Assembly: GCA_964410165.1 (NCBI GenBank)
Contig: CAYPFT010000001.1
Location: 38,341-102,340 of the forward strand
DNA: 64,000 bases
Reading direction: 5' to 3'
Source: an uncultured Candidatus Saccharibacteria bacterium
GTDB lineage: Bacteria; Patescibacteriota; Minisyncoccia; Phycocordibacterales; CAIJYI01
Shown here one piece after another: positions 22,807 through 62,502 of the stretch. The notes under the pieces were generated by a model, which saw nothing but the letters and a program-made list of their open reading frames with translations, had not been told where the DNA came from and ran no database searches. Both the position numbers and the translations under genes were made by a program. Every line of letters begins with the position of its first letter. Position 1 is the first letter of the stretch.

Positions 22807-23631
22807 TTACAGAGAACAGACAACGACACGCCATCGGTCGAACTGGTCTTTCCAAAACTCCGTGCGGAAAGGGGAGAAGGCGGAGAGTTTTTTAATCTCT
22901 TCTTTTTGCCATGAGTCAAATTCAATGAACAGTTTGCCTCCATGGGCGAGGAATTGCGGGGCTTCAGCAAGGAGTTTTTTTATGTAAAACAATCCGTCGT
23001 CTTCGGCAAACAGCGCACCGTCCGGTTCGTAGTTGAGGACGGATTTTTGGACGGCTTCAATTTTCGCGCGGGAGATATAGGGCGGGTTCGCAAAGATAAA
23101 GTTATATTTTTTTGGTGAGATATTCTTGAAAACGTCTGATGTAAAAACCCGCGCACGTTTATGGTCAATATTGTTGAGAGCTAGATTTTTTTCTATTTGC
23201 GCTACAAAGGCAGGTTCTTTTTCTCCGAAGTCTACGGTCGCTGTCAAGAGGTGTTTTAAGAGAGCGATACCAATACAGCCGGAGCCGGAAAAAATGTCGA
23301 GAATTCGGAGGCTTCTCCACCTCTTTAGAGGGGAGTCCGCCAGCTGGCGGAGAGAGGGGGTGGTTTCTTTCACCCCACCCGGCCTCCCCTCTGAAGAGGG
23401 GAGGAGGACGTCGACTACGGCTTTTTCTACCCACCACTCTGTTTCTGTCCGGGGAATAAGCGGGCGGGAAGAGAGGTCGATTTTGCACCCTAAAAACTCA
23501 AAAAAACCGATAAGGTAATCTATCGGTTCTCCTGATTCAAGGCACTTCACGCCTTCGAAGAATTCGGGGGTTTTTTGTCCGCCGTACTTTTCGCGAAGCA
23601 ACCATTCTGTTTCTTTGGCGTAATTATTCAA
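22807..23631 (-). CDS. prmC: Release-factor glutamine methyltransferase PrmC/HemK, containing a ~32-codon in-frame repeat insertion
   Basis: NPPY motif (FIFANPPYI), SAM motif ILDIFSGSGCIGIAL. The segment LLPSSEGRPGGVKETTPSLRQLADSPLKRWRS is encoded by DNA shared with the MITE at 43891-44234. Confidence 0.75.
   Translation of the reverse strand: MNNYAKETEWLLREKYGGQKTPEFFEGVKCLESGEPIDYLIGFFEFLGCKIDLSSRPLIPRTETEWWVEKAVVDVLLPSSEGRPGGVKETTPSLRQLADSPLKRWRSLRILDIFSGSGCIGIALLKHLLTATVDFGEKEPAFVAQIEKNLALNNIDHKRARVFTSDVFKNISPKKYNFIFANPPYISRAKIEAVQKSVLNYEPDGALFAEDDGLFYIKKLLAEAPQFLAHGGKLFIEFDSWQKEEIKKLSAFSPFRTEFWKDQFDRWRVVVCSL
23325..23415. repeat. Family-2 MITE-derived fragment inserted in frame inside prmC
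   Basis: A 31-bp block ggggagtccgccagctggcggagagaggggg is identical to 44144-44174. Its neighbour cccctctgaagaggggaggaggacgtcg matches 44030-44056 with 3 mismatches. Confidence 0.65.
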
Positions 23632-24762: not shown

Positions 24763-24837
24763 TTGAAAATAAATATGCCTCATTCCGGGCAGGTGAAAAC
24801 ATACTAACAAATCCGGAGTCTTTTGGCAAATAAATAA

Positions 24838-25063: not shown

Positions 25064-25110
25064 AATAAAAAAGCCAGCACCTTTCATGGTGTGGCTTTTG
25101 CGATATGGCG

Positions 25111-29593: not shown

Positions 29594-30694
29594 GTGATTA
29601 TAAGCAGAAGCGAGTATACTTTTTGTATGAGAGCTTCCGTAAAAAAAAATAAAGAAACGATACACATGGACATAAGCACCGGAACCATCGTGAGGGCGGT
29701 TCTGGTGCTTGTCGGTTTTTACTTGCTCTATGTTTTGAGCAACTTACTGCTCGTGCTTCTCACGTCAATCGTCGTAGCGTCGGCGGTCGAGCCTGCTACG
29801 AAATGGTTTATGGGGCGGAAGTTTCCCCGGATGCTCGCGGTCCTCGCGGTATACGTGGTTTTTCTGCTTTTATTCGGAGGGATTTTTTACTTCTTTCTTC
29901 CGCCGCTCTTGAAGGACTTTTCGCATTTCTTTTCTTCTTTGCCGAGTTATTTTGATTTTCTTGAACAGTGGAATCCGTGGAGCGACGTCTTGGATTACCA
30001 GCAAATTCTTACGAATCTTACCTCGAATTTTACCGGCGGAACAAGCACTCTCGGCGCGGCGTCCGATGCCGTCGGCGGAATCGCCCGCACGGTCGGCGGC
30101 GTTTTTCACGGATTGCTGAATTTCATATTGATTATCGTCATCTCGTTTTATCTCGCGGTACAGGAGCGGGGGATTGAGAATTTTTTGAAAATAATCGTTC
30201 CGCAAAAGAACGAAAAGTATGTCATTGATCTGTGGTATCGTTCACAGCATAAAATAGGCCGATGGATGCAGGGGCAGGTAATTCTCGGCGTGATGGTCGG
30301 TATCTTGGTGTACCTCGGACTCGCGATCATGGGGGTACAGCACGCGTTCCTTCTTGCCATCGTTGCGGCGGTTTTTGAGCTCATTCCCGTTTTCGGTCCG
30401 ACGCTTGCCGCAGTGCCGGCGGTGCTTATCGGCTTCACATCAAGCGTTACTTTGGGGCTTATGGTCATCGCGTTTTATATCATCATCCAACAATTTGAAA
30501 ACCACCTCATTTATCCGATCGTGGTACGCAAGGTCGTCGGCGTGCCGCCGATCCTCGTCATTATTGCGCTCTTAATCGGCGTGAACCTCGCGGGCTTCAT
30601 GGGGGTCATACTCTCCGTTCCTCTCGCCGCCGCGATCATGGAGTTTGTCAACGATATTGAGAAGAAAAAGGCGGAAGAAATAAAAGAAATATAA
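29594..30694 (+). CDS. AI-2E family transporter (PerM/UPF0118)
   Basis: Multiple TM helices and the conserved C-terminal region (VILSVPLAAAIMEFVND). The start is uncertain (GTG 29594 or ATG 29666). Confidence 0.75.
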   Translation: MIISRSEYTFCMRASVKKNKETIHMDISTGTIVRAVLVLVGFYLLYVLSNLLLVLLTSIVVASAVEPATKWFMGRKFPRMLAVLAVYVVFLLLFGGIFYFFLPPLLKDFSHFFSSLPSYFDFLEQWNPWSDVLDYQQILTNLTSNFTGGTSTLGAASDAVGGIARTVGGVFHGLLNFILIIVISFYLAVQERGIENFLKIIVPQKNEKYVIDLWYRSQHKIGRWMQGQVILGVMVGILVYLGLAIMGVQHAFLLAIVAAVFELIPVFGPTLAAVPAVLIGFTSSVTLGLMVIAFYIIIQQFENHLIYPIVVRKVVGVPPILVIIALLIGVNLAGFMGVILSVPLAAAIMEFVNDIEKKKAEEIKEI

Positions 30695-30798
30695 CTTTAT
30701 TTTGCTCGTCTACTTGGAGGTTCAACCTCCAAGTAGGAACACTTTCTAGAAAAACAAAAATGCCGCGTGCGAAAATAACAGCTCGCGCAGGACATTAT

Positions 30799-33307: not shown

Positions 33308-33535
33308 TAGGACTTACGCACTGTTGCGACAGCGTACGGTTTCGGCGAGGAATTTTGGTCGGTTTCTCCGCCTCTTGGCGGTGGAACCGCCAAAATTCAG
33401 CGCTGAAATCGAAGATTTGGCGGAGAGACCGCCAAAAGGGCGCGACCTGATTTTCTTGAGCGAAGCGATTAGAAAATGGAAGTACCCGTGTGGCAGACTC
33501 ACCGACCAAATCTTTCCCCAGTGCGTAAGTCCTAT
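33308..33535 (-). mobile_element. Family-1 MITE, copy C (~228 bp, inverted relative to copies A and B), ending 9 nt before the tatD start
   Basis: taggacttacgcactgttgcgacagcgtacggtttcggcgaggaattttggtcggtttctcc ... gactcaccgaccaaatctttccccagtgcgtaagtcctat. Confidence 0.7.
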
Positions 33536-38279: not shown

Positions 38280-38405
38280 ATAGGACTTACGCACTTGGAT
38301 GAGATTCGAGGCGAAACAAGGGTTTTTACGGAGATGTACTAACAGTACATTGACGGGAAAACCCGATGTTTCAACGACGAAGATCGCCAAATGCGTAAGT
38401 CCTAT
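38280..38405. mobile_element. Family-1 MITE, copy D (126-bp minimal copy) between rplP and rpmC inside the ribosomal operon
   Basis: ataggacttacgcac ... gtgcgtaagtcctat termini identical to the other copies; the internal sequence is unrelated. Confidence 0.65.
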
Positions 38406-41233: not shown

Positions 41234-43381
<2,148 letters not shown>

Positions 43382-43466: not shown

Positions 43467-43817
43467 TTATTTTCCTTCGTCTCGTCCGGTCTTATAGAGA
43501 CCTTGACTTGGCGATTCAGTTTTCGGCAAATCTTCCGTTGTGGCAGAGGAGCGAGTCATAATAAAGTCGCCCCGGCGATCTTGACGCGTGAAGCATTCCG
43601 CTACACAGAAAGCTCGTTTTTCCGCGTCTTCTCCCGTGAAGTTGAGTACATCTTCGTCCATGATATTTATCCACCACTCGGCTGAATCATCTGGCGGCGG
43701 AAAGATGAAAACAAGATTACCAGCGGTGCTTTTCCAGTGTCCCGTCATTAAGAGGTTTTTCTCCCTCCACTCCCATACCTGCCCAAAACGTTCGATTTTT
43801 TCACCTTGTAAATTCAT
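43467..43817 (-). CDS. Hypothetical protein
   Basis: 116-aa ORF. No motif recognised. Confidence 0.35.
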   Translation of the reverse strand: MNLQGEKIERFGQVWEWREKNLLMTGHWKSTAGNLVFIFPPPDDSAEWWINIMDEDVLNFTGEDAEKRAFCVAECFTRQDRRGDFIMTRSSATTEDLPKTESPSQGLYKTGRDEGK

Positions 43818-43890
43818 GATATTTCTCCAACAAAGAACGGATGTTGTTCAAGTATAAGTAAATCATTTTTTGTTGGCTTTGTCAATCTTT

Positions 43891-44234
43891 TGACAAGTAA
43901 GTTCTCACACCCCACCCCAATCCTCCCTTACAGGGACTGTACACCTTTTGGACTTTTTGTTTCCCCGCCGGCTGGCGGGTCACAAAAATCCTCAAAAGGT
44001 CTTGCGGAACGGGTCCCTGCCCATTCCTCACCCTCTAAAGAGGGGAGGAGGCACGACGGTTGGCGTCCTTACCGCATGGGCACTTCCAATTTTATACTCC
44101 TTTCAGTCGTTAAAATTTAGGTCGCTCCCCCTTTTCAAAGGGGGAGTCCGCCAGCTGGCGGAGAGAGGGGGTTCGTGTGTAATATCGCTCTGTACAGTAA
44201 AGATATTTTTGGGGTGTGAGGACTTACTTTGACA
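43891..44234. mobile_element. Family-2 MITE (~344 bp) with ~25-bp terminal inverted repeats ttgacaagtaagttctcacacccc / ggggtgtgaggacttactttgacaa
   Basis: Perfect inner TIR ctcacacccca/tggggtgtgag. Internal palindromes ccgccggctggcggg and ccgccagctggcgg. Shares a 31-bp block with the prmC insert. Confidence 0.65.
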
Positions 44235-44257
44235 AAAATGTCAAGGACGGGTATCAT
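44229..44257 (+). promoter_or_regulatory. Promoter TTGACA-N17-TATCAT whose -35 lies inside the MITE right TIR; the start codon is 6 nt after the -10 (leaderless)
   Basis: ttgacaaaaatgtcaaggacgggtatcat gggtgt ATG(44264). Confidence 0.45.
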
Positions 44258-44263: not shown

Positions 44264-44577
44264 ATGAAAACACTCAAAAAAGAAACTTCAACCGAATATT
44301 CGTTTACTGTCATATACGAGCCGGTAAAGGGTGGCGGGTATCAGATAACCGTACCGGTTTTACCGGGCGTTATTTCGTACGGGCGGGATATTGAAGAAGC
44401 CAAAAAAATGACCCGACGATTCGATTGATTGATAAAAATGGCATTCATCCGCCGCATTCGCTCAACGCTCAAACTGTCGACGAGGCGGTATATTTTTTGG
44501 ATCAATTTATGTCTGAATGCGAAACACAAGAGTTGCTTCCTTTCGACTACTTCACAAAGGAAGACAAGGTTAAGTAA
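44264..44577 (+). pseudogene. HicB-like antitoxin gene, apparently frameshifted at an A7 tract (44410-44416)
   Basis: N-terminus YSFTVIYEPVKGGGYQITVPVLPGVISYGRDIEEAKK matches the HicB N-domain. The frame stops at 44428, but a +1 shift in the A7 run opens a further 57 codons (NDPTIRLIDKNGIHPP...FTKEDKVK). Confidence 0.4.
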
Positions 44578-44774: not shown

Positions 44775-47177
44775 ATGGTCAATCATATTAAATGGTTTTT
44801 TGAAATAACGATAGATGATGTTCCTTTGGTCGGCGGTAAAAATGCGTCGCTTGGAGAGATGTATAGAGAATTAACGCCGCAAGGTATTCGTATCCCGAAC
44901 GGTTTTGCTGTAACGTCGGAAGCATATCGTTATGTGATGGATCAAGCCAATGCTTGGGAACCACTACACGAAGCGCTTGATGATTTGGATCCGAACGACA
45001 TGTTGGATCTTGCTAAACGAGCTCATCGGGCGAGAGAAATTGTGTATGCGGCGCCGTTTCCCGACGATTTGAGAGAGCAGATTTTGGCATCTTGCGCCAA
45101 ACTGAAAGAACAGTACGGCGATGACACGAGCGTGGCGGTACGAAGCTCTGCTACGGCGGAAGATTTACCGACGGCGAGTTTTGCCGGACAACAGGATACC
45201 TATCTTAATATTCGACCGGATAGAAGCATTATTCATTTTTGCCAACGTTGTTTTGCGAGCCTCTTTACCGACAGAGCTATCCACTATCGGGTTGATCATG
45301 GGTTTGATCACTTCAAACTGGCGCTATCGGTTGGCATCATGAAAATGGTGCGTTCCGATTTGGCTTCAAGCGGGGTTATGTTTTCGCTTGATACCGAGTC
45401 GGGCTTTAAGGACGTGGTGTACATTACCGGCGCGTATGGTCTCGGCGAGAACGTCGTCCAAGGTGCGGTTGATCCGGATGAGTTTTATGTTCACAAGCCA
45501 ACCTTTATGAAAGGATATCGGAAGGTTTTGAAACATTCGCTCGGAACGAAAAAAATAAAAATGGTATATGCGGATACATGGGGAACGGCATCGACTAAAA
45601 ATGTACACACTTCGTTTCATGACCAAAATCGGTTTTGTCTTAATGATGAAGATGTTCTTACTCTCGCCAATTGCGCTATAAAAATTGAAAAACATTATAG
45701 CAAAAAGGCGGGGCGCTCAAAACCAATGGATATGGAGTGGGCGAAAGACGGTATTGACGGAGCGCTGTACATTGTCCAAGCTCGTCCGGAAACGGTCGTC
45801 TCTCAAAAGTCAGGAATGATATTAGAGCAATACGAACTAAAAGAGAAAACAGCGAAGTCGGTAGTAACGGGACATGCGGTGGGCAGTAAGATTGCCGCAG
45901 GACCCGTGCGTATTATGGGAAATGTGAGACAGCTTTCTGATTTTAAGAAAGGCGATGTGCTTGTGGCGGATATGACCACGCCCGATTGGGAGCCGGTGAT
46001 GAAAATCGCTTCCGCAATAGTTACGAACCAAGGCGGACGCACCTGCCATGCGGCTATTATTTCGCGAGAGCTTGGCGTTCCGGCTGTTATCGGTTGTGAA
46101 AACGCAACGACGGCGCTTCGGAATAGCAAGCAGGTGACCGTGTCTTGCGCCGAGGGCGATAAAGGTAAGGTTTATGAAGGTATTCTTCCTTTTGAAGTAA
46201 TCACCACAGATTTATCCCACCTTGGGCGCCCAAAGACGCATATCATGCTCAATCTTGGCAATCCGGAGCTTGCTTTTAAGACGAGCTTTTTGCCCAACGA
46301 CGGGGTCGGCTTGGCAAGAATGGAATTTATCATTACCGAGTATATCAAAGCCCATCCGATGGCGTTGATTCATTCGGAAAAAGTACAAGATGAATCCGAA
46401 AAAAAAGAGCTTGCTTTATTGGTCAAGAATCAACTGCCGGAAGAGTTTTTCATAGAACGTTTAGCGGAAGGCGTGGGAACTATCGCGGCGGCTTTTTATC
46501 CAAAACCGGTTGTGGTACGGATGTCTGATTTCAAGACTAACGAATATGCCACTTTGCTCGGCGGACGCTGGTTTGAATTTGACGAAGCCAATCCGATGAT
46601 TGGTTTTCGCGGCGCTTCGCGTTATACACATTCCGCGTATGCCGAAGCTTTTGCTTTGGAATGCGCCGCGATGAAACGAGTTCGCAACGACATGGGATTG
46701 ACGAATGTCATTCTGATGATTCCATTTTGCCGCCGCATTCGTGAAGCGGAGCGGGTGCTTGAATACATGGCGGAGCTTGGCTTGAGGAGGGGAGAGAACG
46801 GATTGCAAGTGTATGTCATGTGCGAGATTCCGAACAATGTAATTCAAATTGACGAATTTTCAAAGTATTTTGACGGCTTCTCTATCGGCTCCAATGATCT
46901 TACTCAGCTAACTTTGGGTGCAGATCGAGATTCTGCCATTATTGCCGAAAGCTTTGACGAACAAGATCCGGGAGTGAAGGAAATGATTCGGTTTGCCGTC
47001 GCAGGCGCAAAACGAAACGGCAAGCATTCCGGATTGTGCGGTCAAGCGCCGTCCGATTACCCGGACATGGCGGAGTTCTTGGTGGAAATCGGAATTGATT
47101 CTATGAGCGTTACTCCCGACACAGTACTTAAAATCACAGAGCGAGTGCTGGAAGTGGAAAAGAAGCTCGGACGATGA
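44775..47177 (+). CDS. ppsA: Phosphoenolpyruvate synthase (pyruvate, water dikinase)
   Basis: 800 aa; phosphohistidine region GGRTCHAAIISRELGVPAVIG; PEP-utilising C-terminal TIM-barrel domain. Confidence 0.9.
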   Translation: MVNHIKWFFEITIDDVPLVGGKNASLGEMYRELTPQGIRIPNGFAVTSEAYRYVMDQANAWEPLHEALDDLDPNDMLDLAKRAHRAREIVYAAPFPDDLREQILASCAKLKEQYGDDTSVAVRSSATAEDLPTASFAGQQDTYLNIRPDRSIIHFCQRCFASLFTDRAIHYRVDHGFDHFKLALSVGIMKMVRSDLASSGVMFSLDTESGFKDVVYITGAYGLGENVVQGAVDPDEFYVHKPTFMKGYRKVLKHSLGTKKIKMVYADTWGTASTKNVHTSFHDQNRFCLNDEDVLTLANCAIKIEKHYSKKAGRSKPMDMEWAKDGIDGALYIVQARPETVVSQKSGMILEQYELKEKTAKSVVTGHAVGSKIAAGPVRIMGNVRQLSDFKKGDVLVADMTTPDWEPVMKIASAIVTNQGGRTCHAAIISRELGVPAVIGCENATTALRNSKQVTVSCAEGDKGKVYEGILPFEVITTDLSHLGRPKTHIMLNLGNPELAFKTSFLPNDGVGLARMEFIITEYIKAHPMALIHSEKVQDESEKKELALLVKNQLPEEFFIERLAEGVGTIAAAFYPKPVVVRMSDFKTNEYATLLGGRWFEFDEANPMIGFRGASRYTHSAYAEAFALECAAMKRVRNDMGLTNVILMIPFCRRIREAERVLEYMAELGLRRGENGLQVYVMCEIPNNVIQIDEFSKYFDGFSIGSNDLTQLTLGADRDSAIIAESFDEQDPGVKEMIRFAVAGAKRNGKHSGLCGQAPSDYPDMAEFLVEIGIDSMSVTPDTVLKITERVLEVEKKLGR

Positions 47178-47218: not shown

Positions 47219-47229
47219 ATGAGCAAAAT

Positions 47230-47503
47230 CCCTATAGCTAATTCTAGCATATGCCACTTAGCCGGATTAATTTGGTTGATAATCAACTCGGATTGCAGGT
47301 AATGTGCCTCGTACACCGGCTTCTTCTCTCCTCAAAACGAACGATTTTAAGCTCGCAACACGATGATTTCGCATGTATTTTTTTTATACACGCGAATTGT
47401 TTCAAAAAAACGAAAAAAATGCTTACGCTACCGAACTAAAACGACTACGCTATCAACCAAATTAATCCGGCTATTACGCATATGCTAGAATTAGCTATAG
47501 GGG
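47230..47503. mobile_element. Family-3 MITE (~274 bp) with ~50-bp terminal inverted repeats
   Basis: ccctatagctaattctagcatatgc ... gcatatgctagaattagctataggg (25/25 perfect), extended by ccggattaatttggttgata / tatcaaccaaattaatccgg. Confidence 0.7.
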
Positions 47504-51860: not shown

Positions 51861-52175
51861 TGACGTTAGAACCTATATTCTGGAACCAGATGTGTGCTCT
51901 TCCCTTAAGATCGTTCAATCGTGGTAATGGTTGAGGGACACTAGAATCACTTGAGTGGGTAGTTTACACTCTCGGTTGGTATTTCTACCACTTTGAATAG
52001 AACCACCATCACATCCTACTCTCCAGGATGTTAACTATGTTAATGACATTCATTAACTGAATAAAAAAAATAGGCCTGAAAAAGTGCCTATGGGGTAACG
52101 GATACTTTTCGCGAGATTTATCCGGATTCTTTGTTTGAGTCCATTCCGGACAAGGGGTATAATGATATTGACACC

Positions 52176-53489
52176 ATGCCTCTATCCACTACTGATATAA
52201 AAGATTTATTTGTTTCTTTAGAACCAAGGGAAGATTGGTCATTTCGTGATGTTGGGAGATCTCAGACTACGGCCTTTACTCATGACTATCACCGGTATCC
52301 GGCAAAGTTTATCCCCCAAATCGTGAAGAAACTTATAGAAGATTATGCTCCAAGTGGGACTCAGGTTGTTTGCGATCCTTTTGGTGGATGTGGCACTACT
52401 CTTGTGGAAGCAAAAATGTTGGGTCACAAGAGTATTGGATTTGATATAAATCCAGTTGCGAAGTTGATAACTCAAACAAAGACCACTCCAATCAAACCAA
52501 GAACTCTCACTAATTACAGAAGTAAATTCTTGGAGGATTATGATAATGCTCCCACGGTATCGTATGAACACCACCCCAGGATTGGATACTGGTTTGAGCC
52601 AGATATGGTTCGAGAGCTGGACAGAATATATTTTGCTATAAAGGAAATAAAAAACCACAATGTTAGAAGGTTCTTCTTGTGTTCTTTTTCACACAACTTG
52701 AAAAATTGCTCGCGTTGGTTAATGAAAAGTATTAAACCAACTATTGATAAGGAAAAAGTGCTACCTAATCCAAAAGCGACATTCTTGCGTCATCTTGATT
52801 CGATGATACGAAAGAATGAGCAGTTTTACACTTCGTTAGTTCAGTCTAAGTACACGAATGTCCCAGCGAAAATGTACAGGAGGGATTCGACAAAGAAGTT
52901 TCCTCTGGAAACAAATTCTGTAGACCTCATTATTACATCACCACCTTATGTCACTTCATACGAATACGCTGATTTACATCAGCTATCTTTGCTCTGGTTT
53001 GGGGATGACCCGAAGCATTTCAAGAAGTGGCATCATTTTAGCAAAGAGTTCATAGACTTCAGAAGGACTTTCATAGGCACTAGCTCAAAGGCAGAAAAAA
53101 GGGGCGAGTTCGACAGTGAGATAGGCAATCAAATAGTGAATGCGTTAATGTCTGTGGAGCGACCTTTGGCGATTGATGTTGCGAATTACTTTTTGGATAT
53201 GAAGAAGGTTTTTGCAGAAATGCATAGAGTGTTAAAGCCAGGAGGCAAGGCGTGCATCATAATCGGAAATACAAATCTGCGCGGTGTAGAGATTTCCAAT
53301 GCTCAGGTTACTGCAGAGCAAATGCAAGTTGCTGGGTTTAAAAAACTCGATTTCATCAAGCGGGAAATACCCAACAAGATGATTACTCCCTGGAGAGATT
53401 TAGACAGTGGCAAGTTCACCGGCAAGGATAATCCTTCAAAAACTAGAGCTTATGAGTTTGAGTATGTTGTTGTGATGGAAAAAGTTTAG
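52176..53489 (+). CDS. DNA amino-methyltransferase (N6-adenine or N4-cytosine; motif I DPFGGCGTT, motif IV SPPY)
   Basis: CDPFGGCGTTLVEA SAM motif and IITSPPYVTSYEY catalytic motif. Start chosen at MPLSTT, 11 nt after a TATAAT. Confidence 0.8.
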   Translation: MPLSTTDIKDLFVSLEPREDWSFRDVGRSQTTAFTHDYHRYPAKFIPQIVKKLIEDYAPSGTQVVCDPFGGCGTTLVEAKMLGHKSIGFDINPVAKLITQTKTTPIKPRTLTNYRSKFLEDYDNAPTVSYEHHPRIGYWFEPDMVRELDRIYFAIKEIKNHNVRRFFLCSFSHNLKNCSRWLMKSIKPTIDKEKVLPNPKATFLRHLDSMIRKNEQFYTSLVQSKYTNVPAKMYRRDSTKKFPLETNSVDLIITSPPYVTSYEYADLHQLSLLWFGDDPKHFKKWHHFSKEFIDFRRTFIGTSSKAEKRGEFDSEIGNQIVNALMSVERPLAIDVANYFLDMKKVFAEMHRVLKPGGKACIIIGNTNLRGVEISNAQVTAEQMQVAGFKKLDFIKREIPNKMITPWRDLDSGKFTGKDNPSKTRAYEFEYVVVMEKV

Positions 53490-55774
53490 TCTTCTCCAAG
53501 TTGCTCTGCTCTATTGGTGAAAGAAAGGTCAAGAATAAACTTGCTTATAGCTTTAAGTGAGTTGGGAATTGCCCAATCTCGTTTGTCGGGCTCATTTTTC
53601 ATTTCAAAAAACATTGCAATAGCATAAAGATAAATGCTGGCGAAAAATCGTTTTTGGATCGTAGACATCATATCTCCAGATGCATACTTTGGATTTCTTT
53701 TTGGAAATTCAATAAGTACGTCGGGTTCTTTATTTATGTAGACTGTAATTCCTTCTTGGTCTTCCACAACCTCAGCGATATCAACTCCAGTCCATCGTTT
53801 ACCAGATGGCGAAGCCCAGTCTTCTTTTGTCCAGTCTTCTTTGGGAATATATTTTCTTTCCGGGAGTTTAAGGGCAAGTTTTGTCGGCTGTTTTGGAGTA
53901 CCAGGCTTTCCTACATGCGGTTCTTCAAATTCACCTATGATTATTTTCAGCTCAACTTTGAGTGATTCCTGATTTGGTCGTGTAAGTTCAAAAGTCACAG
54001 TGTCGGTTTCTCCCGGTTTTGCGCCTTTGGCTGGTTCAATACGAATAGGCAAGAAGCCGTCTTTTAATGAATACTGATTGATTTGAACCAATTTTGATGC
54101 TGTCCAGCGAAACTCACCGCTGTCTTTGGTTCGTATGAGGTAGTCATTCTGCGCGTCTGTTTTTATTCTCAATCGAGCGTAACGATTGAAAGGAATTGTT
54201 TTTTCATTCTCCTTGAGTTCAAAGAATGTAGGTATGTATTCTCCTTTGTATTCTTTTTTATTTTGTCCCTCGGGTCTCTCTGTGGGCACCTCTTCTCCCA
54301 CATTCAAGAGTGAAGCAAGAAAAGGATTGTCTTTAACCAATCGACCTATATAACGTGATAGGTCTTGGTCTTCTGGTTGAGCATTCTTAAGTTTTCTTTC
54401 TTTGTACTCGCGATTTAACTCTTTCAGTGTTTCATCACCTTTAATAGAGTCAATGAGTCGTTGTTCAAATTCTTCTCTCTCCGGTATGTCAATGAGTCCA
54501 CTTCTTGCAGTATGGAAAACCTTGTTTGCTTCGTGGCTTGCGTTTGATAAATCAATGTGGATTGTCATGAACGGGGCGAGGTCTGGTAACAAGCACTCTG
54601 TTTTTAGAAAGTTTACGGAGTATGTATGTTGAGCTTGTCCGTTCACAGTTAGAAAGACTTTTTCTGTCTGGCTCTTATATGATTTCCCCTGCTCACTCTC
54701 ATCATTGAGAATGACTATTTCAATATTTCTTAACCCAAAAATACCTAACTCTGCTTTGAGCGGTAACACTTGGCGAACAATCTCCTTATCTGAAAATTGT
54801 TTTTTTAGAAGTCTCCAAAGACCGTAGATTCTCGTGACTTTATTTTTATCGGAATAACCTCGAAGCTGAGTACGAAGCTCGTTTATTTGAATTGGCAATG
54901 GCATTGAGAAGTACCTCTTGTTGATTTCACGAGCTAATTCTTTTTCTCTTTGACCGGTTATGAAAAGGTTGCTATTTCTAAGAGCGTAACTATATAGACG
55001 AACAAAACTTCCACTCTCAAAGCTACCCCCATCTGGCAAGATTTTAAGAGGTTCAAAAGGAATGGATGGTACATTGTTGTCTACAACGCAGTATTCATAG
55101 CGTTCTGCCTTAAATCCGGGTTCGTACCATTCACGGACTAGTGAAAATCCCCAAAGATCTTCTGCGCCGTTTTTTATATTTGGAGCTCGTCGTGAGAGAA
55201 CGAGTTGATACCCATTCCCACAGAACTTCAAAGCGGCGGAACCTCCTTGGTTGTATACACCATGAGCGAATTTTATCCTGATTTTATTTGAGCCACCTAT
55301 TGAAAGAAATGTTTTTGGAAAATCGTTCGGGTGTTGTCCTTCACCAGAGTCGAACACTGATATTGTTGGTTTGTCAGGAGAGCCCTCACCAGTTATACGA
55401 ACAGTCTTTAGGGCAATTTCTCGTACTTCTTTATCAGATAAGTCAAAGTCTGCGATTTTTTTACCAAAGAATTGTTTTATTGCTTCTCCCTGGCTTTGCG
55501 GAGCTGACGGTGAGGTAGGATCTATTCCGGTGTCCAAACAGAATCTAACTAATAGCGCATCGATTCCATTTGTAATTTTCTCAACCAAAGCACCAATGGG
55601 ATCTGGTGCTTGAGCCTTGATAGTTCCAGCATTGTTTTCCTGTCCGCCGTACGGTACCCATTTGCAAGTTTTGAAAAACGGGTGTGTGCTAATCAATTCC
55701 GTGACCTTTTCTTGGCTGGTCGCTTTTATGAGTTCCAAGAGAACATCTTTATTTAGCTTTTGTTGAGGAGTCAT
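53486..55774 (-). CDS. Large (762 aa) uncharacterised protein with N-terminal GHKL/MORC-like ATPase motifs; candidate restriction/defence partner of the methyltransferase
   Basis: Bergerat-fold motifs ALVEKITNGIDAL (ExxxNxxDA) and ISVFDSGEGQ (DxGxG); a glycine-rich segment KFAHGVYNQGGSAALKF follows. Convergent with the MTase gene, with 4-nt overlapping ends. Start chosen at MTPQQK, which follows the stop of the small upstream ORF by 4 nt. Confidence 0.5.
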   Translation of the reverse strand: MTPQQKLNKDVLLELIKATSQEKVTELISTHPFFKTCKWVPYGGQENNAGTIKAQAPDPIGALVEKITNGIDALLVRFCLDTGIDPTSPSAPQSQGEAIKQFFGKKIADFDLSDKEVREIALKTVRITGEGSPDKPTISVFDSGEGQHPNDFPKTFLSIGGSNKIRIKFAHGVYNQGGSAALKFCGNGYQLVLSRRAPNIKNGAEDLWGFSLVREWYEPGFKAERYEYCVVDNNVPSIPFEPLKILPDGGSFESGSFVRLYSYALRNSNLFITGQREKELAREINKRYFSMPLPIQINELRTQLRGYSDKNKVTRIYGLWRLLKKQFSDKEIVRQVLPLKAELGIFGLRNIEIVILNDESEQGKSYKSQTEKVFLTVNGQAQHTYSVNFLKTECLLPDLAPFMTIHIDLSNASHEANKVFHTARSGLIDIPEREEFEQRLIDSIKGDETLKELNREYKERKLKNAQPEDQDLSRYIGRLVKDNPFLASLLNVGEEVPTERPEGQNKKEYKGEYIPTFFELKENEKTIPFNRYARLRIKTDAQNDYLIRTKDSGEFRWTASKLVQINQYSLKDGFLPIRIEPAKGAKPGETDTVTFELTRPNQESLKVELKIIIGEFEEPHVGKPGTPKQPTKLALKLPERKYIPKEDWTKEDWASPSGKRWTGVDIAEVVEDQEGITVYINKEPDVLIEFPKRNPKYASGDMMSTIQKRFFASIYLYAIAMFFEMKNEPDKRDWAIPNSLKAISKFILDLSFTNRAEQLGED

Positions 55775-55781
55775 CTTTTTA

Positions 55782-56000
55782 TAGTTTAAAGTCCCGTCTC
55801 TTGGGGAAGTGGAATTTTGCTTTTGTGTTTCTGACATTTCGTTCTATTTCGGAAAAGATTTTGTTTATCTCGTCTTCAGTGTAGTCGTAAACACTCCTGT
55901 TCGCACAGTTTCCAAGAACCTTAAGACGTTTTAAGACCATGTTCGTCCGGAGAGTGGCGAGTCTTACAAAACGATCTCGATTTGTTTCTTTTCCTTTCAT
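55782..56000 (-). CDS. Small basic ORF translationally coupled to the large GHKL-like gene
   Basis: 73 aa. Its stop lies 4 nt before the ATG of the large gene. TATAAA lies directly upstream of its own ATG. Confidence 0.3.
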
Positions 56001-56343
56001 ATTTTTTATACTACAAGGGTTGTTTTATATTTGCAAGGGCGTAACGTATTTATGTAGGGTAGCTTATACATGAGTAAAAGTAAAGTCAAGAAAGCAGAAA
56101 GTGGAATTTTACTTTCAGGGGGGAAGGTAATACCATGTAAATACAACTGAATATCGTGCTCGAAAGAGCTAGGACCTAAACCAGTAGATTTGTCTCTGGC
56201 ATGGTCTCAAATCGTTGAGGATAGAAAACCCGTCATTCAGGGCGTCCTCAACGTTATAGGGGGAAACTCCTATAGGGCCGCAAGGCCTCCTGGTGGCGGG
56301 TTTTGTGTATCCCACCAGGAATTATCAATTAACAAAATTAGAT

Positions 56344-56571
56344 ATGACTGGTGCAATAAAATACAACATCATAGGTCTTTGGGTAGTGGTCGTTGGATTG
56401 GCGTTTATGACACTGAGTGGATTAAGTAGTTCTCGAAGTCAGTTCGAGCAACTCAAGAATGCTCTGCGAGCACAGGAAAGTTTTAATAACTCACTTGTTC
56501 AACAGTTGAATTTGCAGGGTGCTGTGAACGAAAACCTACTGAATTTCGATGGAGCGATCATCAACCAGTAA
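56344..56571 (+). CDS. Small membrane protein, hypothetical
   Basis: MTGAIKYNIIGLWVVVVGLAFMTLSGL TM segment, 75 aa. Confidence 0.25.
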   Translation: MTGAIKYNIIGLWVVVVGLAFMTLSGLSSSRSQFEQLKNALRAQESFNNSLVQQLNLQGAVNENLLNFDGAIINQ

Positions 56572-57005
56572 GTGCACGAAGTTCACACATTCACAATAAT
56601 ATGAAAGAAAGAGAGACGAACAACTCATCGGGGATTATTGCAATTTTTATATTACTGCTGATTCTTGTTCTTTGGTCGTTGACTTGGGATACGGATGAAG
56701 AGCAAGAGCCGTCAGTTCTTGATTCTCCAGAGTTCTTTCAAGAAATGTATGAGCTTGGCGGAGGGCAAATCAAAGAATAGTTTTAGCTTCTCTGGCAACC
56801 TCACTCTTTTTGGACATCTCAAATCAAAAGTAAAGAAACTGGGCACGGAGTGCTTCTGGGGGTAATCGATTAAGGGGATGGACACATCAAGTGTGCTCTG
56901 TGACATCACGGGCACATCTGAGACACTTTCGGTGGGTTGGTAATGGTATCTATCATCTAAAGTTGCTTTCTACCAATACGGCATGGTTTCCGTTAAAATT
57001 GAAGA

Positions 57006-57683
57006 ATGACTCAGGGCAAAATAGAACCAAGACTGCTCGATGAGCTTGAGCGTCTCTTCCAGCGTGAATCTTTTGGTATCGAAGTCATTTTGAAAAGGGC
57101 TAAAATCGGGATTCCTATTCTGGATGGTTTTGAATCCAACCAGAAGTATCTTTCTTGGCTGAAAACACACAAAGATAGATTTTTTGATATTCAGTCAGCA
57201 AGAGCGGACTTAGCTCGAAAGTTTAAGCTACCTCTCCCTCACTCTCAATGGATTGAAGGGTATTTGCTACTTGGAAAAAAGTTTAAGGATTTTGATACAA
57301 CTATCCCTTTTGGGATGTCATTTTCTCGTGGATGGGATAAGGCGGGTTTTTCGTGTGCATTTGAATTTGATAAAGATGAAGAATGCGTCAACATTAAGAT
57401 TCTTCCGGGGGCAAGTTATCGGGATGTGAGTAAATTCATTCGTGATAATAAGGGTGAGATTGAGAAGGCGTTGAGCTCATTTAAGCATAGAGTAGTGCCC
57501 ATTCGAGTACGGAGTCAAAAAGAGCGTGATGAACTTGTTTATGCTTGCTACAAGAAGGGGTTATTGGATCGGTATGGGAGAGATAAGACTTCTGATGGTG
57601 TTTGGCTTCCAGATGAGATTTTGAATATGGATATGGATATGCGACGGAAAATCATTGAGCAACAAATCACATTGAGAAGTTAA
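57006..57683 (+). CDS. Hypothetical island protein
   Basis: 225-aa ORF. No motif recognised. Confidence 0.4.
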   Translation: MTQGKIEPRLLDELERLFQRESFGIEVILKRAKIGIPILDGFESNQKYLSWLKTHKDRFFDIQSARADLARKFKLPLPHSQWIEGYLLLGKKFKDFDTTIPFGMSFSRGWDKAGFSCAFEFDKDEECVNIKILPGASYRDVSKFIRDNKGEIEKALSSFKHRVVPIRVRSQKERDELVYACYKKGLLDRYGRDKTSDGVWLPDEILNMDMDMRRKIIEQQITLRS

Positions 57684-57926
57684 GTGTAAACGCTTAACGG
57701 TTTATCGCGGGACTTCCGTTTTCTTTAGACTGCCTGGTGTAAGGCAGTTTTTTTATGGCATTCACACAAAGGTCGATTCAAAACTTCAAGCGGTTGTATC
57801 TCCAAGAATTCGAGGAGGAGCTTTCGGATGCGGAAGCAGAACGGAGGGCGGGATATCTCCTAGAAGTTTATAGGGTCGTCTTTGGACTGCCAAGCGTAGA
57901 GACGTTCTTTGACAACAAAATAGACG

Positions 57927-58478
57927 ATGAGAAAGCAAAGTGAGCTAGTCACTATCTGGGAGAGTGTGTCGATTATTCCCGGATGGTTGCGGTTGCTGTG
58001 GATGACGAAGCAGTACTCGGATGAGGAACTGGATGAGTTGGAACAGATTGATGATGAGTTTCGTGCTTTTTCCAGAGAGGAGGAAATCAAACATCGGAAG
58101 TGGTTGCGGGAGAATCTCCCTCGGACTACAGATGGGTGGTTGAAGATTTTTCCAGAGGCAGAGAAACTCATCCCTCGGAAGAAACGGAAGAATCAACGGA
58201 GATTCGAGGAGATGCTGGAAGTAGCGAGGGATGTGGACTTGGAGGATGTGGTATCGGAATACGTCGATTTGCGACGGGGCGGTACGCATCGGTTGGTCGG
58301 GCTATGTCCATTCCATGCAGAGAAGACACCCTCATTCGTTGTGTTCACGGATAACCCCCACTACTACTGTTTTGGGTGTCATGAGCATGGGGATGTCATT
58401 ACATTCGTGAGAAAAATTAAAAACTTAAAATTCAAAATGGCTGTGCTGGTGCTGTATAGGTACTCACAGCAAGATTAA
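57927..58478 (+). CDS. CHC2 zinc-finger protein (DnaG-primase-type zinc-binding domain only)
   Basis: VSEYVDLRRGGTHRLVGLCPFHAEKTPSFVVFTDNPHYYCFGCHEHGDVITFV matches the primase CHC2 finger. The start may be at the internal ATG at 58002. Confidence 0.6.
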   Translation: MRKQSELVTIWESVSIIPGWLRLLWMTKQYSDEELDELEQIDDEFRAFSREEEIKHRKWLRENLPRTTDGWLKIFPEAEKLIPRKKRKNQRRFEEMLEVARDVDLEDVVSEYVDLRRGGTHRLVGLCPFHAEKTPSFVVFTDNPHYYCFGCHEHGDVITFVRKIKNLKFKMAVLVLYRYSQQD

Positions 58479-58482
58479 AAAT

Positions 58483-60168
58483 ATGAGCAAGAAAAAAGAA
58501 AAAGAAATTGTGGAAAAGAAATCCATTGATCAAATTGCAGAAGAGGAGAAAACAAAGAATGAGAATCCTACTCCACCAAATGAAGCAGATACGGCTGATG
58601 GTGAAGATGTTGAGTGGCCGGGTGTGTCGTGCATTCTGCAAGACGGGTCATTAGTCGAGATGTTGCATGATTCGGTAAAGCGGACTACTAAGTTGGCGGT
58701 GTATAAAGACGGCAAAGTAAGTCTTGAGGATAGCGTGCGGTTCGATGATAGGACGGTGTTTAAGCCATTAGCTCCCAATCAAAGTCTTCTTGAGACTGGG
58801 TACATTTTGTTTCCTTCGGAGGTCGGAGATTATCAAAGTAATGAAGCCCTGTATTACGAAGTGAGAGCGTTCGTAGATAAATATGTGCAACTTCAAAATG
58901 AGTTTCTCTCGGTCGTTGCAGTCTACATCATGATGAGTTGGGTATACGACAAGTTTAGGAGCGTTCCCTATCTGCGAGTGACAGGTCTCTGGGGAAGCGG
59001 AAAATCTAGATTGTTGTCGGTGGCGGGAAATCTCTGTTACAAGACGGTGATGGCGGGCGGGTCAATCAGTAATGCGGCTTTGTTCAGGACTCTTGATTTG
59101 GTGAAGCCAACTCTTGTGTTTGACGAAGCCGAACTTAACGAAAAAGAGTCAACTGAAATGCGGATGGTTCTACGGCAGGGCTACAGTGCGGGTACTCCGG
59201 TTTCGCGGATGGAGAAGTTACCAAACGGAAAGATGTATATCCAAACATTCGATGTCTTTGGTCCAAAGATTATCGCTTCTTTGGCTCGATTCCATGATGT
59301 TGCTCTTGAAAGTCGATGTCTCACAGGTTGGATGCCTCCACACATGGATAGTGGAAGACCCATTGAGTTAACCAAAGCATTCAAGGAGGAAGCGTTGGCA
59401 TTGAGGAATAAACTTCTGATGTTCAGGTTTAAGAATCATCATCTGATGAGTGCGGACGAGAGTGCGTTGGGAGGGATAAGTCTTCCTCGGTTGAAGCAGA
59501 CGGGACTTGCGGTGATGAGCGTGGCGAAAATGCTTGGGGTACAACCAATCGAAGATGTAAAGAAGTTTCTGGTTGAGTACGAACAAGAACTCGGTATTGA
59601 GCAAGCAGACTCGGTAGAAAATGACATTCTACTCTGCGTGTTAGATCTTCTTACCCAACCAGGAATCAGGTATGCGGGCAAAATTCGTACGGGTGTGGAC
59701 TTGGCGGAGAAGTTCAACAATCTTCACTATGAAGACTACTCAAACAGGGAGACGAAAGAGTACAACTCTAGTTCGATGGGGGTGATGAAGTATCCGGGGT
59801 CAAAAGTGTCTGCGAAGAAAATCGGTTGGTATGTGCGGAAGATGGGCTTTCGAGTGGATAGAGATGCCCGGGGCTTCTACATCTCTATTGTGAAGGAGTA
59901 TCCAAAGATTCGGTTGCTGGCGAAGCGGTACGGGCTTGATTCTCTATTCGAGCTTCCAGAGGGCAATCTCAACGGAGTGAAGCGAGTCGTGGACGCTGCT
60001 ACTAAGGCACAAAATTTGAAGGCGCAGGAAGAGCGGAAGCAAAAGAGGGAGCTTGAAGAGAAACGGAAGAAAGAGGCGGAGGAGAGGGAGCGAAATCGTA
60101 AACCAATGTCAGATGAAGAATACAAGGAGATCTTTGGAGAGAACTCTCTACCTAAAGATACTCTTTGA
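58483..60168 (+). CDS. P-loop NTPase, putative replication/primase-associated ATPase of the island
   Basis: Walker A VTGLWGSGKSRLL and Walker B PTLVFDEAE. C-terminal K/E-rich tail. Confidence 0.45.
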   Translation: MSKKKEKEIVEKKSIDQIAEEEKTKNENPTPPNEADTADGEDVEWPGVSCILQDGSLVEMLHDSVKRTTKLAVYKDGKVSLEDSVRFDDRTVFKPLAPNQSLLETGYILFPSEVGDYQSNEALYYEVRAFVDKYVQLQNEFLSVVAVYIMMSWVYDKFRSVPYLRVTGLWGSGKSRLLSVAGNLCYKTVMAGGSISNAALFRTLDLVKPTLVFDEAELNEKESTEMRMVLRQGYSAGTPVSRMEKLPNGKMYIQTFDVFGPKIIASLARFHDVALESRCLTGWMPPHMDSGRPIELTKAFKEEALALRNKLLMFRFKNHHLMSADESALGGISLPRLKQTGLAVMSVAKMLGVQPIEDVKKFLVEYEQELGIEQADSVENDILLCVLDLLTQPGIRYAGKIRTGVDLAEKFNNLHYEDYSNRETKEYNSSSMGVMKYPGSKVSAKKIGWYVRKMGFRVDRDARGFYISIVKEYPKIRLLAKRYGLDSLFELPEGNLNGVKRVVDAATKAQNLKAQEERKQKRELEEKRKKEAEERERNRKPMSDEEYKEIFGENSLPKDTL

Positions 60169-60508
60169 GGAAGTTAACTTCGTTCACATCGTTAATGTGG
60201 GGGTGAGGGTAAGTCATACTCTCACCCCTCTTAGCGTGTGTGCGAATCTACCCAAAGTTGTTAACACTTTTTTGGGATTATTAACCTATACATATATAGA
60301 ATAATGTGGTATAATATATTTATGAAAATAAAGTATCTAAGCCATATTTTCTAATCTTGTATGGATTTCGAGTCACTCAAAGATTGTGTAATCGTAGACA
60401 TGATTGAGAAAGTCAAAAAAATGACTCGGGATGAGCTTGAGAGTCGTGTGATCGATTTTGAATCTCGAAAAATCGAAACTCTCAAAACCTTAAATGAGGT
60501 AATAGATT

Positions 60509-62200
60509 ATGGAAACAAAAACAAAACTTAGATATGTAGCGTATGCTCGTAAGTCGACTGACCAGGAAGAAAAACAAATCACTTCCATTGAAGATCAGTT
60601 GCGGGAAATTGAGCGGATAGGTGCTGATTGTCACATTACAAAGAAACTCACGGAAAAACGGACTGCTAAAACTCTGGGTCGTCCTGTTTTTGCTGAAATG
60701 TTGCAGTTGATTCTGGATAAGAAAGTAGACGGGATTGTTTGCTGGAAGCTGAATCGGTTAGCAAGAAATCCAATAGATGGAGGGCAGATAATCTGGATGT
60801 TGCAAAATGGGGTTATCAAAGAAATCAGGACTGATGATGGTATCTACACTCCAGAGAGTGACATGATAATGCTTCACATCCACTTCGGGATGGCTCATCA
60901 GTTCAGTTTGAATCTCAGTAAGGACATCAAGAGAGGTTTACAGGGTCGTCTTCGTGAGGGAGTTCGTCCAAGTATTGCTCCTATCGGGTACATAAACAGT
61001 CAGTATCACATCAAGAGGATGGAAGAAATCTTGGTTGATGAGGAGCGGTTCCCAAAAGTAAGAAAGTTATTCGATTTAATGCTTTCTGGACAATACTCTC
61101 CTCTCCAGTTGGTTGAGATTGCGGATAAGCAACTCCATCTGGAAACAAGGGGGACGAAGAAATGGCCGAGAAAAGCGATGAGTAAGTCAAATATGTATCG
61201 GGTTCTCACCAATCCTTTCTACTATGGGTCGTTCGAGTTTCCGGAGGGTAGCGGTGATTGGCATGTTGGTAAACATAAACCAATGATTACGGAAGAGGAG
61301 TATGACAAAATCCAATCTCTCCTTGGTCGTGAGGGTAGACCGAGACCGAAGACTCACATCTTTGCTTACACTGGATTGATGCGGTGTGCAGGTTGCCAGG
61401 CTCGCGTGACTGCTGAAGAAAAATGGAAACACCAACAGAATGGGAATAGTCACCATTACATCTACTATCGGTGTACGGGTAGTCAGGGTCCAGAGTGTTT
61501 GGAGAAGTCGGTTGAGGTGAAAGTTCTGGAAAAGCAAATTGATGAATTTCTCTCTAAGATTCAGATTCCACCAGAGTTCCATGAATGGGCTGTTGAGGAG
61601 TTGAAGAAACTCCATGAAAGAGAAAAGGGTGATAGGAACTCGCTGATTGTGAAGCATGAGCAGGACTATAAGGACTGTGTATTCAAGCTGGATCAGTTGA
61701 TGGAGCTTCGATTGGAGGGCAAGGTTTCGGATGAGATGTTCTCTCGGAAGGAATCACAACTCTTGAAGCAGAAAGCAGAATTGAAGAGATTGTCTGATGG
61801 AGATGATAAGAGAGTAGATGACTGGTTGGTTCGTCTTGAAAGCACTCTCACCTTTGCGGAGAGAGCCAGAGAGGAATTCCAAAAGGGTGATATTGCGAAG
61901 CGGAGGCAGATTCTTACTGCTTTGGGGACTGAGCATATCCTCAAAGACCGGGCAATCCACATCAATACGGAAAAACCACTCCTTGTACTTCAAGAAGTGG
62001 TTTCCGAGAGCAATCGTCTGTTAGATAAGTTAGAACCTCCCAAAAGTGTTGGAAACAATGGGCGGATTAAACAAATCTATGACAAAAGTTCATCAATGTG
62101 GAGATGGGGGGAATCGAACCCCCGTGCAAAAAGGAATTCTCGCTCCTTCTACAAACATAGATTATTTGTTTTTGGTTTAAGTGGAAAAAGTAAGGAATAA
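60509..62200 (+). CDS. Large serine recombinase (resolvase/invertase-type N-terminal domain plus recombinase and zinc-ribbon domains)
   Basis: YVAYARKSTDQEEKQITSIEDQ catalytic-serine motif. The recombinase domain (RPSIAPIGY) and CxxC...C zinc ribbon (RCAGCQA...YYRCTG...C) are both present. The 3' end reads through the ssrA terminus. Confidence 0.85.
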   Translation: METKTKLRYVAYARKSTDQEEKQITSIEDQLREIERIGADCHITKKLTEKRTAKTLGRPVFAEMLQLILDKKVDGIVCWKLNRLARNPIDGGQIIWMLQNGVIKEIRTDDGIYTPESDMIMLHIHFGMAHQFSLNLSKDIKRGLQGRLREGVRPSIAPIGYINSQYHIKRMEEILVDEERFPKVRKLFDLMLSGQYSPLQLVEIADKQLHLETRGTKKWPRKAMSKSNMYRVLTNPFYYGSFEFPEGSGDWHVGKHKPMITEEEYDKIQSLLGREGRPRPKTHIFAYTGLMRCAGCQARVTAEEKWKHQQNGNSHHYIYYRCTGSQGPECLEKSVEVKVLEKQIDEFLSKIQIPPEFHEWAVEELKKLHEREKGDRNSLIVKHEQDYKDCVFKLDQLMELRLEGKVSDEMFSRKESQLLKQKAELKRLSDGDDKRVDDWLVRLESTLTFAERAREEFQKGDIAKRRQILTALGTEHILKDRAIHINTEKPLLVLQEVVSESNRLLDKLEPPKSVGNNGRIKQIYDKSSSMWRWGESNPRAKRNSRSFYKHRLFVFGLSGKSKE

Positions 62201-62491: not shown

Positions 62492-62502
62492 ATGTTGTTG
62501 AG

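Follow-up and report, generated by a model that had tools for sequence, protein, structure and literature searches.

A small, structured MITE-like element whose flanking direct repeat, rather than its terminal inverted repeat, holds a -35-like hexamer

[quoted passage not shown] Our locus lies in a 64-kb stretch of DNA (hereafter the window) and consists of an inverted-repeat element, named family 2, which is located between a minus-strand open reading frame (ORF) of 116 aa (43467-43817) and a plus-strand HicB-like ORF starting at 44264. Like the described bacterial MITEs (PMC10969869), the family 2 element is small and non-coding, has terminal inverted repeats (TIRs) and a flanking duplication, and occupies an intergenic, promoter-adjacent site and folds into a long hairpin. 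Likewise, a scan of 40 window ORFs revealed no transposase, in keeping with a non-autonomous element. Unlike typical MITEs, it is present as one full copy in 64 kb and as none in the public collections searched, and its interior is a mosaic of modules common to other element families. On balance, we consider it probable that the locus is a composite, non-autonomous MITE-like transposon that came to lie between two divergent promoters and whose insertion duplicated a -35 box.

Ends, flanks and promoter-like site of the family 2 element

The two arms of the inverted repeat, AAGTAAGTTCTCACACCCCA (43895-43914) and TGGGGTGTGAGGACTTACTT (44210-44229), are 20 nt long with a single mismatch (95% complementary), and their inner 11-mer CTCACACCCCA is perfect and is not found at any third place in the window. 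Only four elements of the window are delimited by inverted repeats of such quality (20 nt, no more than one mismatch, 60-600 nt apart), whereas 30 simulations with first-order Markov sequences of the window gave none. Directly outside each TIR lies one copy of TTTGACAA, an 8-bp direct repeat without mismatches (43889-43896 and 44228-44235), and from this arrangement we take the element proper to be the 331 bp from 43897 to 44227, with 18-nt TIRs (GTAAGTYCTCACACCCCA). The TIR starts with GTAAGTYCTCAC..., and the right tip of the element, ending at 44227, reads ...GTGAGGACTTAC / ...GGACTTAC. The length of the duplication is ambiguous within 4-8 bp, since the AA/TT beside the TIR can be assigned to either feature. 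A preliminary description of this DNA had proposed an element of ~344 bp with ~25-bp TIRs, of which the inner 11 bp are indeed perfect, while the outer ~6 nt (TTGACAA) turned out to belong to the direct repeat.

No credible ORF was found within the 331 bp; the longest one encodes 94 aa, and its only two database relatives are themselves spurious ORFs that lie in homologous repeats. On either strand, the fold of the 356-nt region is far more stable than those of shuffled controls (z = -7.3 and -8.4). A known RNA family was dropped as the identity of the element, because Rfam gave no match at E < 0.1 and only chance matches up to E 10; for the whole window at gathering thresholds, tmRNA and LOOT alone were returned. 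A resemblance of GGTCGCTCCCCC... to CRISPR repeats was likewise dropped, as there is no array. With its TIRs, flanking duplication, small size and absence of a transposase ORF, the element has several of the features by which MITEs are recognized, and it is reasonable, judging from one copy, to regard it as small, non-coding, highly structured and MITE-like. The earlier designation as a MITE can thus be kept for a non-coding, structured, TIR-bounded element with a flanking duplication, but not for a family defined by these termini.

The top sigma-70-like match of the region is TTGACA-17-TATCAT at 44229-44257 (11/12), which abuts the inverted repeat, in agreement with the promoter-like site reported previously. 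In contrast, the proposal that the right TIR supplies the -35 box is not supported, since the TTGACA hexamer lies outside the inverted repeat and inside the right copy of the direct repeat, and the left border carries a TTGACA that reads in this orientation too. An unchanged orientation at both ends is the pattern expected of a target-site duplication and not of a TIR, and the direct reading is preferred because it is perfect over 8 bp, whereas the inverted reading needs a mismatch and an indel. Most likely, the -35 box is part of the duplicated target site rather than of the TIR, and no sigma-70-like site was found inside 43897-44227. When the element is excised together with one copy of the repeat, ...GGCTTTGTCAATCTTTTGACAAAAATGTCAAGGACGGGTATCATGGGTGTATG... 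is restored, and this compact, divergent control region has a leftward TTGACA (complement of 43880-43885) and the rightward TTGACA-17-TATCAT, in which the TTGACA/TGTCAA half-sites are arranged as palindromes and may represent an operator. The coordinates of these and the other features are collected in Table 1.

Judging from the spacing, a transcript starting from the TATCAT site would be leaderless or nearly so. The HicB-like ORF downstream matches Pfam PF15919 at profile positions 3-38 of 123 with 21 bits (cut-off 27); its frame breaks at the stop codon 44426, and a 50-aa ORF follows in another frame (44425-44577). Identical sequence across the frame break is carried by L005, an independent contig of the Logan assemblies, and the HicB-like gene is a probable pseudogene fed by the predicted promoter. 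Hence, of the earlier claim that the promoter feeds the HicB-like ORF, the promoter-like site upstream stands, whereas the ORF itself is frameshifted.

Table 1. Features of the family 2 locus and of related sequences in the window.
Feature	Position	Strand	Basis
Left TTTGACAA copy, putative target-site duplication, with orphan TTGACA	43889..43896	+	Identical to 44228-44235
Left TIR GTAAGTTCTCACACCCCA	43897..43914	+	One mismatch vs right arm
Conserved ~150-nt unit: long hairpin followed by CCTCACCCTCTAAAGAGGGGAGG hairpin	43899..44059	+	BLAST and nhmmer matches
Mini-palindrome CCCGCCGGCTGGCGGG (apex of the long hairpin in the unit)	43964..43979		Alignment
48-nt module GGGCACTTCC-hairpin-AGGTCGC	44078..44125	+	In copies 1b, 1c and L003; not in 1a
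32-nt block GGGGAGTCCGCCAGCTGGCGGAGAGAGGGGGT (end of hairpin CTCCCCCTTTTCAAAGGGGGAG, palindrome TCCGCCAGCTGGCGGA, then GAGAGGGGGT)	44141..44172	+	Identical to 23330-23361
Right TIR TGGGGTGTGAGGACTTAC, includes AGGACTTAC	44210..44227	+	Pairs with left arm
Right TTTGACAA copy, includes -35 hexamer TTGACA (44229-44234)	44228..44235	+	Sequence
-10-like TATCAT, 17 nt 3' of TTGACA; ATG 44264 follows after 6 nt	44252..44257	+	11/12 match
HicB-like N-terminal fragment, 54 aa	44264..44428	+	Partial PF15919 match, ORF list
In-frame palindromic insert in prmC, 102 nt, 34 codons, LLPSSEGRPGGVKETTPSLRQLADSPLKRWRSLR	23305..23406	-	Family 2 hairpin modules
Family 3 element, 124 bp, termini TAGGACTTACGCAC, between rplP and rpmC (by position)	38281..38404		TCAAA duplication

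If the locus arose by insertion, a transposase supplied in trans would have inserted the element into ...TTGTCAATCTT[TTTGACAA]AAATGTCAAGG..., between the divergent genes, and the insertion would have duplicated 8 bp containing the -35 hexamer of the HicB-like gene's promoter. The empty site would then have read ...TCTTTTGACAAAAATGTCAAGGACGGGTATCAT... with a single TTTGACAA. In the occupied site, the right TTGACA copy would still stand 17 nt from TATCAT, while nothing would have changed at the leftward -35 (TGTCAA, 43880-43885). Both promoters would survive because the 8-bp duplication kept the rightward -35, and two intact promoters would explain why the insertion was tolerated.

The right boundary is also hinted at by contig L005 (SRR4343430; 3,073 bp), which comes from the same organism and encodes the window's PpsA. 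Its sequence agrees with that of the window at 100% identity and starts at 44198. Logan contigs are built from a de Bruijn graph with k = 31, where no 31-mer of an accession occurs twice (PMC12424806), so that neighbouring contigs share 30 nt (k-1) and a contig running from unique flank into a repeat ends 30 nt within it. As 44198-44227 is exactly 30 nt, a branch of the graph is placed between 44227 and 44228, which is the proposed end of the element. The start of L005 is a hint, not proof, that a further copy or allele of the terminus is present in the SRR4343430 sample.

Homologous units and the modular interior

The ~150-nt unit of the left half is the only part of the family 2 element with homologues in other genomes, namely in two further genomes of Paceibacterota. 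It was found by using the 94-aa spurious ORF as a protein query, which led to two hypothetical proteins on one JGI contig (L006/L007), and the unit is present in L007 at 5544-5700 (86%), 7521-7677 (85%) and 5445-5283 (68%), in addition to a remnant. A 21-mer common to all unit copies led to one more GTDB genome, a Candidatus Paceibacterota metagenome-assembled genome (MAG), with units in L009 at 1732-1586 (77%) and in L008 at 3-99. The units occur in both orientations, and in L007 and L009 two units face each other across an AT-rich centre, the unit not being terminal. The L007 units lie inside elements of 370 to 490 bp with TIRs of their own (GCTGAAGTGCCTGCAC... / GCTGAAGTGCCTGCACTTTTT), and the repeats flanking L007_A and L007_B are ~8 bp long with one mismatch each (CCGTTGTA/CCGTTGCA and GTAATGGT/GCAATGGT). 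The TIRs in the window are made up of the first nucleotides of the unit plus nine further bases, and an inverted copy at the far end. From these comparisons, what recurs is an internal unit carried in different transposon-like shells. A homology between the left flank in the window and the AT-rich centre of the L007/L009 elements, which would shift the boundary, was rejected on account of an unconvincing alignment. Exact-pattern scans of viral contigs for the internal block, the unit motif and the core of family 1, another element family of the window described below, gave 0 matches, and BLAST with the family 2 element gave no match in phage and plasmid collections.

The alignments suggest that the family 2 element is composite, the left half being the ~150-nt unit and the right half a set of small hairpin modules, which also occur in family 1 elements and in prmC. 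The mini-palindrome CCCGCCGGCTGGCGGG is missing at the apex position in all unit homologues, and palindromes of the type CCGCC(A/G)GC(T/C)GGCGG are found elsewhere (L007 5333-5346; L009 1935-1948, beside a different hairpin). Among four sequences of the 48-nt module, compensatory double changes affect 6 of the 15 predicted pairs, and compensated hairpins are also seen between family 1 copies (CCGCCAAGAGGCGG vs CCTCCAAGAGGAGG). This modularity, which is the most unusual aspect of the locus, can be due to selection on hairpins, as RNA or as single-stranded DNA, or to DNA-level repair within palindromes.

A more speculative and, in our view, unlikely idea is that Paceibacterota harbour a network of self-propagating modules that hop between MITE-like shells and repeatedly hit a hot spot in PrmC, with their stems under selection. 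The palindrome CCGCCNGCNGGCGG, hairpins of the type CCYCT-loop-AGRGG and the 48-nt ACTTCC-hairpin-AGGTCGC module may be the members of such a network. Were this true, families 1 and 2 would share modules and not ends, inserts in PrmC would be in frame, and stems would be kept for a function as RNA or single-stranded DNA; the 344-bp element would then be a snapshot of a modular, nested mobile system undescribed for the candidate phyla radiation (CPR).

The prmC insert and other elements of the window

The preliminary description had also placed a fragment of family 2 within prmC (22807-23631, minus strand), and this was confirmed by the exact 32-nt block at 23330-23361, which is accompanied by a second, 21-nt match to the family 2 element. 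The insert preserves the reading frame without a stop codon and aligns colinearly with both ends of an element of the L009 type that has lost its centre. In an AlphaFold model it forms a low-pLDDT coil that follows helix 62-76 and precedes the first strand of the methyltransferase fold; the site, ahead of motif I, has the appearance of a permissive linker. At the same site before motif I (ILDxFxGSGCIG), PrmC relatives carry nothing, only LLPSSEGRxGG, the palindrome TTTGGACATCCGATGTCCAAA or long unrelated inserts. The first 42 nt of the L014 insert are ~88% identical to the 42 nt of the window, while the proteins are only 61% identical. Altogether, the linker preceding motif I is a hot spot with at least four different palindromic or long in-frame inserts (P0002-P0026; L002 3260-3440, L003, L004, L014 10220-10270). 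A HMMER search with the 34-aa insert against 1.84 billion representative proteins returned no true relative and one spurious haemagglutinin-like repeat protein, and there is consequently no sign of proliferation in proteins of the kind known from Rickettsia palindromic elements (RPEs). No other window ORF carries the hairpin modules.

Family 1 has three copies in the window (~3481-3680, 24834-25064 and 33308-33534) whose termini are TAGGACTTACGCAC or, as a variant, CTCACCTTACGCAC. Differences between the copies consist of a ~50-nt module and of compensated changes in hairpins. Flanking duplications of 5 bp were found for copy 1c (TTGAA), copy 1b (TTTAT) and family 3 (TCAAA), and the 244-bp element of copy 1b, upstream of infC, is absent from the relatives L003 and L004, indicating that family 1 and family 3 elements are genuine insertions. 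From the end of copy 1b it is 5 nt to the -35 (TTGCCA) of the promoter of infC, and copy 1c lies 10 nt before a start codon, while the family 3 element lies in a ribosomal protein operon, 17 nt before the ATG of the next gene, and must therefore be co-transcribed. A separate observation concerns L003 36-140 (minus strand), where a partial element with the ACTTCC-hairpin-AGGTCGC module follows an AI-2E transporter gene; the window counterpart of this site is only 66 nt long (30694-30760), so that presence and absence are reversed.

The 9-mer AGGACTTAC occurs six times in the window against 0.16 expected occurrences, five times in family 1/3 termini and once in the right arm of family 2, and the earlier observation that family 2 has this sequence in common with the family 1 termini is thus correct. 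The suggestion drawn from it, that families 1 and 2 are mobilized by the same transposase, is not supported in view of the polarity of the 9-mer, which reads from the tip inward in families 1 and 3 (TAGGACTTAC...), whereas its complement reads from the tip inward in family 2 (GTAAGTCCT...). This opposite polarity, together with the differing length of the duplications (5 vs ~8 bp), argues against one transposase.

Two further inverted-repeat elements were noticed. The first is a MITE-like element downstream of ppsA (47229-47503) with arms of ~50 nt (CCCTATAGCTAATTCTAGCATATGC...AGCCGGATTAATTTGGTTGATA) and a 5-nt mismatch block, and contig L005 ends inside its left arm. The other is a 109-bp element (2503-2611) with 20-nt inverted ends CTAGTACCGGATTAACTTAA, located 2 nt before a promoter-like TTGACA-17-TATCCT site upstream of a gene for a short-chain dehydrogenase/reductase (SDR), and its arms share CCGGATTAA with the 47.2-kb element. 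The SDR gene (2686-3489) is flanked by inverted-repeat elements at 2503-2611 and 3481-3680 and is the first of a beta-oxidation-like set (2686-14368), which further comprises electron transfer flavoprotein (ETF)-quinone oxidoreductase, ETF alpha/beta, thiolase, 3-hydroxyacyl-CoA dehydrogenase and acyl-CoA synthetase. Such a gene set is unusual for a CPR genome.

The PrmC relatives are all from Parcubacteria/Paceibacterota MAGs, which places the organism of the window in that CPR lineage. In contrast, PpsA (44775-47177, plus strand) is 78-80% identical to enzymes of Methylococcaceae/Methylobacter, with no CPR-named match among the best 120. At the DNA level, the similarity of ppsA to proteobacterial contigs is ~73% and ends at the ORF borders, and the genomic contexts of the closest relatives are proteobacterial. 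The gene is probably an old horizontal acquisition from a methanotroph, and a methanotroph-type ppsA is a possible clue to a host or partner. Elsewhere in the window, genes for a DNA methylase, for a zinc-ribbon protein of the primase type and for a large serine recombinase (60509-62200) lie in a low-GC island (39-42%; ~52000-62500), and the 3' end of the recombinase gene overlaps the tmRNA gene (62096-62491, minus strand). The LOOT RNA (56173-56288) lies inside this island, which is probably an element integrated at ssrA. A tRNA-Lys called by ARAGORN at 43210-43303 lies inside the EF-G ORF (41234-43381) and is probably a false positive.

Streamlined CPR genomes are usually called poor in mobile DNA, and the elements found here indicate that they carry small inverted-repeat elements at promoters, in operons and even in an essential gene. 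In the full-text library searched, no paper was found that connects MITEs or palindromic elements with CPR, Parcubacteria or Patescibacteria, and a survey of 183,232 genomes leaves CPR, Parcubacteria and Patescibacteria unmentioned. Such repeats also break short-read assemblies, contig L005 ending in two of them, and create spurious ORF calls. The modular hairpin network and the insertion hot spot in PrmC are the parts that merit a wider survey.

Competing explanations and comparison with known systems

Several observations weigh against insertion of a transposon with the ends proposed here. Elsewhere in the window, so far the source of the one full-length copy known, nothing matches the 20-nt terminus, and no match was found in the 185,579 GTDB species genomes (one genome per species, 596 Gb); its one match in JGI metagenomes, on an unrelated eukaryote-like contig, was judged to be due to chance. 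A family in the sense of the preliminary description, recognized by these termini, thus has no other member in these collections, that one chance match aside. Moreover, the unit end CACACCCCA is internal in L007 and L009, where it faces the centre of the element, and the 'TIRs' of family 2 are therefore not a conserved terminus of a family. The sequence TTGNCAA is palindromic, the flanks are also readable as an imperfect extension of the inverted repeat, and other TTGACA/TGTCAA half-sites are already present in the flanking region. The break of L005 could instead be due to a strain variant of the same locus. Finally, the search for an empty site through relatives of PpsA led to proteobacterial contigs (L010-L013) and to no syntenic CPR relatives, and no empty site was obtained because the adjacent ppsA, which is of the Methylococcales type, is probably a horizontal acquisition; an empty site was seen for copy 1b of family 1 alone.

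If the flanks are read as part of the inverted repeat, a TIR of ~25 bp would include TTGACAA, and its outward-facing -35 would create a hybrid promoter for whatever sequence lies downstream, as Correia elements do. That the 11/12 match abuts the element, that TTGACAA and TTGTCAA are near reverse complements, that one mismatch and one indel suffice to lengthen the arms, and that Correia and MITEAba12 carry promoters of this type all agree with such a scenario, yet we find it quite improbable. The left TTGACA is direct and not inverted, and the direct match is perfect over 8 bp where the inverted reading is imperfect; in addition, the Logan boundary fits an element that ends at 44227, before TTTGACAA, the L007/L009 units have no TTGACA at the corresponding position, and the gene that would be served is frameshifted. 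The very stable folding raises the question whether the locus instead encodes a structured non-coding RNA or clustered RNA hairpins that are conserved for a role at the RNA level, for example as a small RNA or in transcript stabilization or termination, with the inverted ends as a closing helix. The compensatory changes in the 48-nt module and in the family 1 hairpins are in line with this, as are the conservation of the unit over three genomes (77-86%) and the location of sister elements within operons, where they are necessarily transcribed (family 3 at rplP/rpmC; copy 1c 10 nt before a start codon). However, Rfam gave no match, folding is equal on both strands and units are found in either orientation, RNAalifold gave a consensus fold for the unit that is almost without covariation (-0.12 kcal/mol), and no promoter-like site was found above the shuffle expectation upstream of the L007 unit and none inside the window element. 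Presence and absence among relatives and flanking duplications are furthermore hallmarks of insertion, and compensation in palindromes can also result from DNA-level hairpin repair, making an RNA locus a rather improbable explanation.

It has also to be considered that the locus never moved as a 331-bp unit and was assembled in place from palindromic modules resembling repetitive extragenic palindromes and bacterial interspersed mosaic elements (REP/BIME), with mini-hairpins of the CCGCCNGCNGGCGG and CCYCT..AGRGG types inserted or copied side by side, and with the TIR and the 8-bp repeat as by-products of duplication or template switching. The mini-palindrome at differing positions in different unit copies, the 48-nt module present or absent among otherwise colinear family 1 copies, the different palindromic inserts of different relatives at the prmC site and the single copy with these termini would all be expected from such accretion. 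On the other hand, a clean architecture of TIRs and direct repeats is seen in family 2, L007_A and L007_B, duplications of 5 bp accompany families 1 and 3, and no IS200/RAYT-type gene was found among the scanned ORFs of the window. Mobility of the REP/RAYT type is not known to leave a target duplication. We therefore hold local accretion to be improbable, and continue to favour the insertion of a composite MITE-like transposon with duplication of its target site; most likely, the family 2 element is an ordinary small mobile element of a little-studied lineage.

In insertion sequences of the IS66 family, TIRs generally begin with GTAA and are accompanied by direct repeats of 8 bp. Family 2 resembles this family in a TIR that starts with GTAA(G) and in its 8-bp duplication, and duplications of ~8 bp are also found for L007_A and L007_B. 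Published IS66 examples have the TIRs GTAAGCGTCCGG... (PMC12888890) and GTAACTGCTCAGCA, the latter together with the 8-bp direct repeat CCTCGATG (PMC12898284). The likeness to these published TIRs extends over only ~8 nt, and no TnpC, TnpA or TnpB was seen in the window; as far as can be judged from such short similarities, the IS66-like ends are a lead and not a demonstrated membership. With REP/BIME elements the locus shares short GC-rich palindromes that are clustered and variable in position, but long TIRs and duplications are present and a conserved head of the GTAG type is not, and because of these TIRs and duplications family 2 is not REP/RAYT-like. The insert in prmC in turn recalls RPEs (PMC10969869), as it is likewise ~100 nt long, in frame, within a housekeeping gene and in a predicted surface or linker coil; it differs from them in that one window gene is affected and in that the lineage belongs to the CPR and not to the Rickettsiales. 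Finally, Correia elements carry promoter hexamers inside the element, whereas in family 2 the -35 is in the duplicated flank, and since no promoter hexamer lies inside it, the family 2 element is not a promoter donor of the Correia type. In conclusion, the family 2 locus illustrates how easily the donation of a promoter by a MITE and the duplication of a target site can look alike.

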